Shown here: piece by piece, positions 33,295 to 35,690 of the stretch
How positions within the stretch are numbered: the first letter of the stretch is position 1
How the letters are laid out: each line of letters starts with the position of its first letter
Source of the DNA: a virus
Taxonomy: Duplodnaviria > Caudoviricetes
Virus record (IMG/VR): IMGVR_UViG_3300031942_000024
Span: 1-38,902 of that record
Reading direction: 5' to 3' (one strand)
DNA length: 38,902 nucleotides
Made by a program: the position numbers and the translations under genes
The notes under the pieces: model-generated
Databases searched by the model: none
Told to the model about the DNA's origin: nothing
The model's input: only the letters and a program-made list of their open reading frames with translations

Positions 33295-33492
33295 ATGGGT
33301 ATGTCGGGTTCGCAACCGATGCCGACACCGGGCGGGCCGCCCAGGACCATTGCGGAAGAACCGAATTATGGCGAGGAGCTCAGGAAATACAATCACAAGA
33401 TGCGTGTCGCGTTGCGCGTGGTCGACGACGGCGGCGCCGCGGCGCACGCGATGCAGCGCATGTTTCAAGCGCGTGATCGAGGGCCGCGATGA
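33295..33492 (+). CDS. hypothetical protein
   Basis: GGAGGT SD before ATG 33295; ATGA overlap with terL. Confidence 0.6.
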   Translation: MGMSGSQPMPTPGGPPRTIAEEPNYGEELRKYNHKMRVALRVVDDGGAAAHAMQRMFQARDRGPR

Positions 33493-35690
33493 AGATCAGT
33501 CTGCCGCATAACGACTGGCGGCCGCGGCCGCATCAGATGGCACTGTGGCGCTATCTGGCGCAGGGCGGCAAGCGCGCGATGGCGGTGTGGCATCGCCGCG
33601 CCGGCAAGGACGAGATCTGCCTGCACCACGCCGCGGTGTCGCTCGCGACCCGCCGCGGCAATTACTGGCACTGTCTCCCCGAGTATGCGCAGGGCCGCAA
33701 GGCGATCTGGACCGCGGTGAATCCGCATACCGGCAAGCGCCGGATCGACGAGGCGTTTCCGCCGGCGTTTCGCGAGAACACCAACGACAACGAGATGTTT
33801 CTGCGTTTCCTCAACGGTTCGACCTGGCAGGTGATCGGCAGCGATCGCTACAACGCCACGGTCGGCGCCGGTGTCGCCGGCATCACCTATTCGGAATACG
33901 CGCTGAGCAATCCCAGCGCCTGGGCGTTTCATCGCCCAATGCTTGAAGAGAACGACGGCTGGGCCTGTTTCATCTCGACGCCGCGCGGTCGCAATCACGC
34001 TTACGAAATGGCGAAGTATGCGCAAGCGCAGCCGGGCTGGTTTTACGAGCGGCTGACCGCGGTCGACACCGGGGCGCTGTCGGCCGAGCAGCTCGCCGCC
34101 GCCGAGGCCGAGTACATCGCGCTGTACGGCCTCGACCAGGGCGCTGCGCAGTTTCGCCAGGAGTATCTCTGCGACTGGGCCAGTGCGCTGCTCGGTTCGT
34201 TCTACGCCGCCGAAATGGCCGCGGTGCGCGACGAGGGCCGTATTACCGAGCTGGCCGAGCCGGATCTGTCGAAGCCGGTGCATCGCGCCTGGGATCTCGG
34301 TGTCACCGACGATACTTCGGTCTGGTTTTTCCAGCCGCGCGGCGCGCAGCTCTTGATCGTCGACCATCTCAGCGCCTCCGGTGTCGGCGTGGAATGGTAT
34401 CGCGACGAGATCTTCCAACGTCATTCCGTGCGAGGTTGGAGCCATGGCAACGACTACGTGCCACACGACGCCAAGGTCAAGGAGTGGGGGACTGGACGCA
34501 CGCGCGTCGAGACAATGCAAGGACTTGGTCTCAAGCCTCTGCTCGTCCCGCTTGCTTCCGTCCAGGATGGCGTTAACGCCGTTCGAAGAACTCTACCTCT
34601 ATGCGTGTTTCATCCACGCTGTGAAGACAGTGGCATCAGCGCGCTTGAGCAGTATCGCCGCGAGTGGGACGACGAGCGCAAGGCGTTCAAGCCATCGCCC
34701 CACCACGACTGGACGAGCCACGCCTGTTTCATAGGTGATACACAAGTATTGACGCGTTACGGAACGCAACGGATAATGGACCTCCCTCAGACAGGAGAGG
34801 TTCTGACCCCATGCGGATGGAAGCGGTATCACAGCCCGCGCATGACACGGAGAAATGCCCAACTTGTGGAGGTGGTGTTTACAGACGGTCTTACGGTGAG
34901 ATGTACGCCGGATCATTTATTCAAAACGGCAAGCGGGTGGAAATCCGCCGAGTCCCTCACGAAGGGTTCGTTGATCCAATCGTCCTTGACATTATCACAC
35001 AGTATTTCGATGGCGGCCTCTATCGCATGTGGCCTGGGGCACCGTATTACACTCGCGGCGGCAAGACAGTGCATCGCGATGTTTGGAAGATGGCATTTGG
35101 AGACATTCCTACCGGGTGTCACATTCATCACAAAGATAGCGACCCAGCCAACAATCGGCTTGATAACCTGGAATGCCTCCCAGCCAGCGAGCATATGTCA
35201 ATCACATGGAACGGCACACGCGCGAAACGTGCAACCAACGGGTATTTTACGCAGGCTGCGAGGGATGCCGCTACTGAATGGCATAAGTCGGAAGAAGGAC
35301 GACTGTGGCATAGACGTCATGCCAGGCGATCAAAGGGTTGGCTTAAATGGAAGCGCGAGGAACGGTCGTGTCCTCAGTGTGGAAAGAAGTTCAACGCTCT
35401 CGTTCGTAAGAGCGGCGCTGCACAAATTTATTGCCATCCTAATTGTAAAGCCGCTGCGTATCGAGCGCGTCGATAGGCTCAGTCATTGCGAAGATGTTTA
35501 TTGTCTTACAGTCCCCGACGAGGAAGCGTTTTCATTAGCGAATGGTGCTATCGTTCATAACTGCGACAGCTTCCGCTACCTTGCCCAGGCCTGGCGAGCC
35601 GCTCCGCGGCCCCGGCCGCAAGAGCCGCCGCGCGACGGCTGGGTGATCCCGCCGCCGACTGAGCCGCAACGCAGGAGGATCGTGCTGTGA
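33489..35690 (+). CDS. terL: terminase large subunit, intein-containing (454 aa after splicing)
   Basis: HRRAGKD Walker A, YSEY Walker B, ISTPRGRNH, AWDLG, PHDA; removing the intein restores HDWTSHA/CDSFRYLA. Confidence 0.95.
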   Translation: MKISLPHNDWRPRPHQMALWRYLAQGGKRAMAVWHRRAGKDEICLHHAAVSLATRRGNYWHCLPEYAQGRKAIWTAVNPHTGKRRIDEAFPPAFRENTNDNEMFLRFLNGSTWQVIGSDRYNATVGAGVAGITYSEYALSNPSAWAFHRPMLEENDGWACFISTPRGRNHAYEMAKYAQAQPGWFYERLTAVDTGALSAEQLAAAEAEYIALYGLDQGAAQFRQEYLCDWASALLGSFYAAEMAAVRDEGRITELAEPDLSKPVHRAWDLGVTDDTSVWFFQPRGAQLLIVDHLSASGVGVEWYRDEIFQRHSVRGWSHGNDYVPHDAKVKEWGTGRTRVETMQGLGLKPLLVPLASVQDGVNAVRRTLPLCVFHPRCEDSGISALEQYRREWDDERKAFKPSPHHDWTSHACFIGDTQVLTRYGTQRIMDLPQTGEVLTPCGWKRYHSPRMTRRNAQLVEVVFTDGLTVRCTPDHLFKTASGWKSAESLTKGSLIQSSLTLSHSISMAASIACGLGHRITLAAARQCIAMFGRWHLETFLPGVTFITKIATQPTIGLITWNASQPASICQSHGTAHARNVQPTGILRRLRGMPLLNGISRKKDDCGIDVMPGDQRVGLNGSARNGRVLSVERSSTLSFVRAALHKFIAILIVKPLRIERVDRLSHCEDVYCLTVPDEEAFSLANGAIVHNCDSFRYLAQAWRAAPRPRPQEPPRDGWVIPPPTEPQRRRIVL
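34749..34803 (+). promoter_or_regulatory. internal sigma70-type promoter, SD and SD-sequestering hairpin for the nested HNH gene
   Basis: TTGACG (34749-34754)-N17-GATAAT (34772-34777); AGGAGAGG 34793-34800; stem 34778-34787 pairs with 34793-34803. Confidence 0.7.
34811..35476 (+). CDS. HNH homing endonuclease encoded out of frame, fully nested within the intein
   Basis: HRDVWKMAFGDIPTGCHIHHKDSDPANNRLDNLECLPASEH (HNH_3-type, 35072-35194); C-terminal CPQC...YCHPNC zinc finger; N-terminal CPTCG. Confidence 0.9.
   Translation: MRMEAVSQPAHDTEKCPTCGGGVYRRSYGEMYAGSFIQNGKRVEIRRVPHEGFVDPIVLDIITQYFDGGLYRMWPGAPYYTRGGKTVHRDVWKMAFGDIPTGCHIHHKDSDPANNRLDNLECLPASEHMSITWNGTRAKRATNGYFTQAARDAATEWHKSEEGRLWHRRHARRSKGWLKWKREERSCPQCGKKFNALVRKSGAAQIYCHPNCKAAAYRARR

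Follow-up and report, generated by a model that had tools for sequence, protein, structure and literature searches.

The terminase large subunit gene, terL, of a podovirus-like soil phage is interrupted by an intein inside which an intact gene for an HNH nuclease lies on the same strand in another reading frame, and this two-frame layout is both real and widespread. The phage is represented by IMG/VR record IMGVR_UViG_3300031942_000024, analysed over its whole length of 38,902 nucleotides (nt) and referred to below as the window. Comparison with related loci makes it likely, as far as sequences can tell, that the nuclease is produced separately from the intein, in frame +2 relative to terL, that it nicks terL, and that it represses its own synthesis through a copy of its terL target lying over its promoter. 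Somewhat short of an even chance, in our judgement, is the fuller account in which codons of the splicing domain were overwritten with this autoregulated cassette and with a newly born, folded N-terminus of 52 residues, the element slides among four sites in terL, and the target copies reveal the homing sites of the family. Recent papers do not settle by what means homing nucleases hidden out of frame are expressed and controlled; this family offers a precise, testable answer, in which promoter, ribosome site, start codon and predicted operator each have a fixed place. The predicted operator also predicts the homing site and, if this is true, the homing sites of the whole HNH family could be read from the target copies in its promoters. 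Such inteins are common rather than rare (at least 110 non-redundant elements) and have been overlooked in annotation; their basic layout is not new, and they exemplify cleanly both an apparent overprinting of catalytic-domain codons and the drift of an intein insertion site.

The intein and the nuclease in its second frame

The window's TerL, which matches PHROG family phrog_2 (E 1.7e-19) and among cultured phages is closest to the terminases of Bradyrhizobium and Rhizobium phages (61% identity), carries the intein at a site denoted D-1, one residue ahead of the conserved Asp in the motif H-D-W-x-S-H-x-x-D. The precursor, the intein and the nested gene comprise the following features.

33489..35690, + strand: terL, terminase large subunit precursor, an open frame of 733 residues, 454 predicted after splicing
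34725..35561, + strand: intein of 279 residues, from C1 to His-Asn, followed by Cys+1; TPDH is residues 61-64
34725..34988, + strand: N-terminal splicing region, residues 1-88, with TPDH block B at 34905-34916; dual-coded from codon 29
34989..35453, + strand: shadow loop of the intein frame, about 155 codons, with a low-confidence model and no domain
35454..35561, + strand: C-terminal splicing region, blocks F and G, from profile matches and the AlphaFold model
34811..35476, + strand: nested HNH_3 nuclease gene, 221 residues, frame +2 relative to terL
34811..34966, + strand: N-terminal extension of the nuclease, residues 1-52, with a CxxC, encoded over the intein splicing domain
35066..35197, + strand: HNH catalytic core, residues 86-129, with H106, H107, N119 and H128
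35369..35446, + strand: C-terminal zinc ribbon C187/C190/C208/C212

The intein frame exceeds the cut-offs of Pfam PF14890 (38.9 bits against 35.8), TIGR01445 (24.9 against 24.5) and TIGR01443 (24.4 against 15.6) and bears all the sequence marks of a class 1 cis-splicing intein, splicing itself being predicted. Across 110 non-redundant elements of the family, C1 and a Cys, Ser or Thr at +1 are universal (110/110 each) and the terminal His-Asn is present in 102. AlphaFold modelled the intein frame with a predicted local distance difference test score (pLDDT) of 87-98 over residues 1-90 and 92-98 over residues 241-279, against 36-74 between them, and the top Foldseek matches of this model are inteins (E 1.5e-5), so that the two splicing regions, as modelled, form a HINT domain around a low-confidence middle. 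The +2 frame matches PF13392 HNH_3 over residues 86-129 with 61 bits (cut-off 24.8; E 8.6e-17). Its H106, N119 and H128 are invariant across 115 nuclease sequences, as are the four Cys of the zinc ribbon, although the score of the zinc ribbon profile in the C-terminus falls below that profile's cut-off. The nuclease-frame model has a mean pLDDT of 88.5, and its best structural match, with Foldseek as with VIA, is I-HmuI (VIA Z 6.7, root-mean-square deviation 2.5, 77 aligned residues, model range 53-137). Much of what a first-pass annotation, made from the letters of the window, had proposed is hence borne out: a complete intein in TerL, an intact 221-residue HNH protein with a zinc finger out of frame with it, and no domain recognisable by profiles in the intein-frame middle. 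The overlap with the block B region that it described is also real but amounts to about 59 nuclease codons, not 55, within the N-terminal splicing region, and the last few codons of the gene overlap the first C-terminal strand as well.

The two-frame layout is no assembly error. An independent viral contig is 99.87% identical to the window across 4716 nt with 0 gaps, its 6 substitutions all lying outside the intein, and contigs from three of four runs, soil runs that may belong to one campaign, cover the intein in gap-free pieces, the fourth having no coverage of it. Nor does any homologue carry the HNH in frame. A census of 253 sequences (252 loci and the window) held 180 with an HNH match, 168 of them with a full intein, and in these the nuclease is in frame +2 in 165, in frame +1 in three and in the intein's own frame in none; collapsing at 90% nucleotide identity leaves 110 elements, 108 in +2 and two in +1. 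The canonical arrangement, an endonuclease within the intein polypeptide, is thus absent from all 168, and what is found instead is a nuclease open reading frame (ORF) in another frame of an intein frame that stays open, within a terL that is itself a single open frame and not the two ORFs of a split-intein host gene. The other 12 HNH loci were set aside as truncated (2), further +2 inteins (7, one cut at a contig end) or free-standing genes (L054, L055 and L134). As each scan contributed its best 80 loci, at least 110 is the size to be given for the non-redundant family. A search for in-frame fused forms among 246 candidates of 388-2000 residues gave none, which is weak evidence, and the best 80 loci of a contig scan comprised four members and, among the other 76, three profile-checked inteins without a nuclease. 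Of 45 hosts scanned, 43 match named TerL families and two match only phrog_2472, a family without a name to which the window's TerL shows a match as well. In four cultured phages, TJE1, phiCDHM19, Highwayman and LS06-2018-MD07 (L253-L256), the intein and its nested +2 HNH sit unannotated within terL; the elements of Tetrasphaera phage TJE1 and Rhodobacteraceae phage LS06-2018-MD07 are distant members of the family. Most comparisons below concern the window's subfamily, 77 of the 110 elements, delimited by intein-frame similarity alone at a score gap from 89 to 68 bits. L159 and L165 may have wrongly called ends. The three +1 nucleases (L142, L152 and L155) belong to the same HNH family, which suggests separate invasions of inteins. 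A further subfamily member, L387 (2001-2830), has its intein frame broken by a frameshift that may be a sequencing error or decay.

Comparative data support the reality of both frames and selection on each. The most variable position is the nuclease wobble in the HNH core (entropy 1.50 versus 0.65 and 0.86) and the intein wobble in blocks F and G (1.64); in intein codons 29-88 all three positions are constrained (0.5-1.0). Modal residue frequencies in the loop region are 0.37-0.44 in the intein frame against 0.63-0.72 in the HNH frame, supporting a view of the intein-frame middle as an unconstrained loop maintained stop-free. Upon synonymous recoding of the nuclease the intein frame would stay open in 5.0 of the 77 elements, against 77 observed, and the shadow frame of five free-standing relatives contains 1-12 stops. 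Selection to keep the intein frame open, as the first-pass annotation had it, therefore stands on comparative grounds, but its chance estimate of 5e-4 was about 200-fold too small, recoding of the window's HNH core leaving the intein frame open with P=0.09. Terminase is essential, so the intein frame must stay open in any case. Purifying selection is likewise seen in the +2 nuclease frame, which is open in 77/77 over codons 29-58 (20.6 expected) and over codons 59-88 (27.1 expected) but in only 12/77 over codons 1-28 (30.2 expected); in none of the 77 does the open stretch begin later than codon 26. Among 41 elements retrieved by intein-frame patterns, both blocks are open in 41/41 (11.0 and 16.0 expected). 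The nearest mini-inteins (L263, L483 and L487), distant relatives and so an imperfect control, have neither the promoter nor an open +2 frame.

Predicted control signals within splicing-domain codons

The candidate signals for separate expression of the nuclease, and the terL sequence that one of them resembles, lie at these positions.

34749..34777, + strand: predicted sigma70-type promoter TTGACG-17-GATAAT, within intein codons 9-18
34751..34770, no strand assigned: predicted operator, in which two copies of the D-A-F-R-Y codons overlap in inverted orientation (+ copy 34751-34765; - copy 34756-34770)
34794..34801, + strand: predicted Shine-Dalgarno GGAGAGGT, 9 nt ahead of the ATG
34901..34903, + strand: second in-frame ATG (Met31), a possible alternative start with a weak ribosome site
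35565..35579, + strand: D-S-F-R-Y codons in the C-extein, the window allele's copy of the predicted nuclease binding site

A sigma70-like promoter with at least 10 of 12 matches to TTGACR-17-GATAAT occurs in 58/77 subfamily members (7.8 expected), and both hexamers and their 17-nt spacing are conserved by means of rare codons (TTG for Leu9 in 59/69, ATA for Ile17 in 62/69); the match in the window is its only one of such quality on the + strand. A ribosome site at or below -5 kcal/mol is present in 68/77. The ATG at 34811 is conserved in 65/77 (15.9 expected) while the intein residue encoded at codon 29 varies (P30, S18, L15), and an ATG or GTG is found within codons 29-36 in all 77. Separate expression of the nuclease, also proposed at first pass, is supported by this conserved promoter-like site, ribosome site and ATG. 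The opening energy predicted for a hairpin over the ribosome site is 14.2 in a long transcript and 9.0 in a short one (null 12.6 and 10.5), and the hairpin exceeds the null in 54/76, a weak hint. Distant members begin the nuclease at about intein codon 74-102, and one of them, L006, has a perfect sigma70 match ahead of its ATG. In a group of 13 that starts at codon 74 (L131, L138, L140, L144, L146, L148, L151, L154, L160, L163, L164, L167 and L169), a TAnnTTTG box, which we take to be the Bacteroidota promoter box, is fixed 38 nt before the ATG in 9/13 and a D-A-I-R-Y-like copy lies 54 nt before it in 12/13, pointing to a different host-type promoter in the same design.

The sequence over the promoter resembles terL codons that start at the conserved Asp. 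When empty alleles were scored with a matrix of the promoter region, the top match fell on the insertion site in 22/43. The reverse test used a matrix of 119 host terL 15-mers only, taken from the conserved Asp (D-A-F-R-Y codons), with a threshold of 8 bits over the 75 nt upstream of the ATG; copies were detected in 69/77 subfamily members (controls 25/711), 17/29 distant nested genes (7/227) and 5/7 free-standing genes (5/53). Measured against a synonymous null, the + copy scores higher in 77/77 and the - copy in 75/77. The copy in L158 agrees at 13 of 15 nt with the motif of its own host, the unusual D-E-A-C-H, and the target motif recurs, at differing positions, in about ten separate contexts. 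The operator copies of the subfamily cannot be leftovers of a duplication, since they lie far from the presumed entry point of the gene. We infer that the D-x-x-R-Y codons are the binding site of the nuclease and the promoter copy its operator, an arrangement of the I-TevI type in that a homing-site-like sequence lies over the gene's own promoter, the homing site itself being predicted.

The first 52 residues of the nuclease appear to have arisen by overprinting of the splicing domain. Their CxxC is conserved in 76/77 and Arg is retained through both AGN and CGN codons, whereas alignment with free-standing and distant relatives, and with I-HmuI, begins only near residue 52-54. A profile of residues 1-52 had no match in the five free-standing loci tested, and no relatives of the extension were found among short proteins, the Atlas or PDB sequences (best E 0.012), other databases possibly holding some. 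Nuclease residues 31-60 are modelled as strands with pLDDT 85-96, a confidence that intein-frame covariation may inflate. A short, terminator-like stem-loop at 34894-34910 of the window holds the second ATG in its loop and may only mirror two-frame protein constraints.

Insertion sites, proposed mechanism and rival explanations

Four insertion sites are used within five codons of terL, 1, 2, 4 and 5 residues before the Asp, by 18, 23, 11 and 25 of the 77 elements, respectively (that of L115 assigned by hand). Their distribution on the element tree entails 27 site changes, between the minimum of 3 and the 41.4 of shuffled labels, and the window's element (D-1) is nearest in that tree to one at D-5 (L175). 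Position D-1 holds Ala or Ser in 43 empty alleles, picked by likeness to the window's TerL with hosts not matched, and none of them has Cys, Ser or Thr at D-2; alleles with the element have Cys or Ser there, a contrast suggesting that the element carries its +1 codon with it. None of the nine TerL relatives closest to the window's contains the element and, among the best 80 loci of the TerL scan, some of which end before the site, five carry the element and 43 are verified as empty. Elements 67% identical to the window's occur in hosts of 21-39% identity, and element and host identities correlate weakly (Spearman 0.21, 68 element-host pairs). Free-standing relatives in five cultured phages lie directly after terL in four and before terS in one. 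In L054 (4144-4817; also in L055) a free-standing HNH gene with its own ribosome site and a premature stop adjoins the 3' end of an intein-free terL, and a duplicate of the terL 3' end, beginning at the R-Y codons, lies downstream. That duplicate and the terL-adjoining genes are as expected if the nuclease already targeted this spot.

In the mechanism that we propose, a free-standing, terL-targeting nuclease gene would have invaded a mini-intein, keeping its own promoter, and in the window's subfamily the start signals would later have shifted upstream into block A, turning about 52 shadow codons into a new N-terminus. An origin by such an invasion fits the data more simply than does the conjecture, made at first pass, that the layout serves to decouple the dose and timing of the nuclease from terminase. 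The intein would excise itself together with the loop from the terminase (733 to 454 residues), and the nuclease would be made separately, with transcription from about 34784 and translation from 34811. It would nick intein-free terL near the D-x-x-R-Y codons, allowing the element to spread, and would bind the target copy over its own promoter, leading to autorepression. An insertion between the H-D-W and the D-x-x-R-Y codons would divide the target sequence and so leave the donor protected; several neighbouring sites may be in use because any insertion there would do so, and sliding among the four may be tolerated because the nuclease would read the D-x-x-R-Y codons and not the junction, and because the element brings its own +1 Cys codon.

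Other explanations fit parts of these data. Internal initiation at 34811 or 34901 on a terL read-through transcript, the promoter-like and operator-like sequence being in truth an RNA hairpin or a by-product of intein residues, is an improbable route to the nuclease, though the least so of the rivals: the -35 box lies within an inverted repeat that tolerates G-U pairing (pair 32/41 is G-T in 25/77) and is stabler than recoded nulls in 64/76, Met31 is conserved and gene callers give 193-residue forms (P0010 and P0018), but hexamers and spacing preserved through rare codons are not what it predicts, free-standing relatives have single, non-palindromic target copies over promoter-like sites, the ribosome-site hairpin in long transcripts is predicted to be only slightly above null, and a start at 34901 alone leaves the stop-free codons 29-58 (77/77) unexplained. 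The ribosome site at Met31 is weak, its mean duplex energy being -3.5 kcal/mol versus -7.6 kcal/mol at the first ATG. A domesticated packaging cofactor like HK97 gp74, kept for terminase function and not for homing, is an idea raised for Brucella phages in one report (PMC4422536), and homing and packaging roles are described as hard to separate by Barth et al. (PMC10448857). The tie of the family to the terminase locus, nested or free-standing, would suit such a role, which we nonetheless regard as quite unlikely given the many empty alleles, the nine closest relatives among them, and a terL-codon copy over the promoter that fits a DNA target in terL. Slightly less credible still is a -1 ribosomal frameshift, whose product would be a fusion of TerL, the N-terminal half of the intein and the nuclease. 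Frame +2 is the same as -1 and stays open across the N-terminal splicing region, but codons 1-95 of the window contain no canonical slippery heptamer, at most 4/77 elements share one at the same position, and the conserved ATG, ribosome site and promoter would be needless. Broken copies do exist (the frameshifted L387, and L012 with a stop in its nuclease), yet the gap-free independent contigs, the 0/168 in frame and the purifying selection on the +2 frame refute both a pair of assembly errors and the decay of an intein with its endonuclease in frame.

Some observations weigh against the self-repressing, terL-nicking nuclease that we prefer. Its structural match to I-HmuI is middling, with a Foldseek E of 0.13 and none below 0.001. 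The 15-nt identity of each copy to its own host target is raised only modestly (mean 9.5 versus 8.6), the window's copy reaches nine identities where the control maximum is also nine, the target-copy signal depends on a wobble-tolerant matrix, and 12/29 distant nested and 2/7 free-standing genes have no 8-bit match. Taken alone, the window's promoter is not significant (one found versus 0.7 in shuffles; P=0.09 under recoding), and the second ATG at 34901 is as well conserved (71/77) as the first. Resolution of the element tree is poor, with 35 of its 74 inner branches open, and the strongly supported ones demand just 3-4 changes for each site label. Those pairs of elements that are most alike (81-89% at nucleotide level) sit in equally close hosts (83-92% at amino acid level), revealing no very recent jump, and the 77 elements share ancestry, so that counts among them are not independent events.

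Known elements and the 3' part of terL

The two-frame layout has been published before, contrary to the novelty implied at first pass: an HNH lying out of frame in a terL intein was reported in 2015 (PMC4422536), and further reports, in 2025 and 2026, concern intein endonucleases that are out of frame. An intein-encoded out-of-frame HNH was reported in terL of all annotated Brucella phages (Tevdoradze et al., 2015), and that of Brucella phage Tb/Pr (record JN939331; PMC4422536) shares with the window's element a terL intein, an open host frame and a nested same-strand HNH gene of comparable length (228 residues). The site, frame and nuclease layout are not the same: the Tb intein follows residue 174 in the ATPase half and its nuclease is in frame +1, whereas the window's occupies a site in the nuclease domain and has its gene in +2; the Tb nuclease has N-terminal zinc ribbons and a C-terminal HNH, the window's an HNH and then a zinc ribbon; and the Tb gene starts past the N-terminal splicing region, whereas the window's overlaps block B. 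Similarity between the two nucleases is at the level of motifs only (BLASTP E 0.004), and the two elements are likely of independent origin.

In actinobacteriophages, Gosselin, Arsenault and Gogarten (bioRxiv 10.1101/2025.01.02.630785) describe endonuclease VII-like genes in frame 3, a nuclease family other than the window's; they list TerL among non-canonical intein hosts and propose invasion by a free-standing gene as the origin. Their secondary ORF typically lies outside the splicing domain, whereas here about 59 codons overlap it in 77/77. A cyanobacterial dnaX intein (Phillips, DeSimone and Gogarten, bioRxiv 10.64898/2026.09.14.751524) likewise has a +2 ORF, a disordered intein-frame loop, frame-specific selection and a putative Shine-Dalgarno; it differs in its LAGLIDADG nuclease, chromosomal host and single site, and the paper describes no promoter, operator or splicing-domain overlap. 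The ShiLan element hides a zinc-finger HNH in frame 3 of an open host frame but involves a methylase host, no intein and no detectable ribosome site, its route of translation being left open in that account (Arsenault et al., 2025; PMC11855218). For control, the closest parallel is I-TevI of T4, with its own promoter, a homing-site-like operator over that promoter and a possible ribosome-site hairpin (Edgell et al., 2010; PMC2988022), and for fold it is the nickase I-HmuI (PDB 1u3e), which the nuclease model resembles weakly. Both belong to group I introns, with no protein frame to preserve, whereas the window's signals lie within codons of the intein's catalytic domain. Mycobacteriophage TerL inteins have been reported in the ATPase domain at two sites one residue apart (Kelley et al.; PMC5050341), and a split intein with a free-standing endonuclease breaks its host gene into two ORFs (Dassa, 2009). 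An intein-internal promoter, operator, overprinting or autorepression was not found in the literature, a weak blank as the known out-of-frame terL layout was also missed. What the present family would add to these precedents is a control cassette placed within the splicing domain, along with the target copy, the N-terminal extension of the nuclease and drift among four sites.

Third-position G+C in the window's terL dips 5' of the intein (from 0.83 to 0.68), which was considered as a possible co-conversion tract and rejected, as close intein-free relatives dip equally or more (L016 -0.23, L017 -0.21, L085 -0.20). Low third-position G+C in the 3' part of terL (34389-34658 in the window) is shared with the intein-free L016, L017, L085, L025 and L044 and suggests an exchanged module at a recombination-prone spot. 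In L268, which has neither intein nor HNH, a terL 3' motif occurs twice (661-698 and 1501-1538), 840 nt apart, flanking unrelated cargo.

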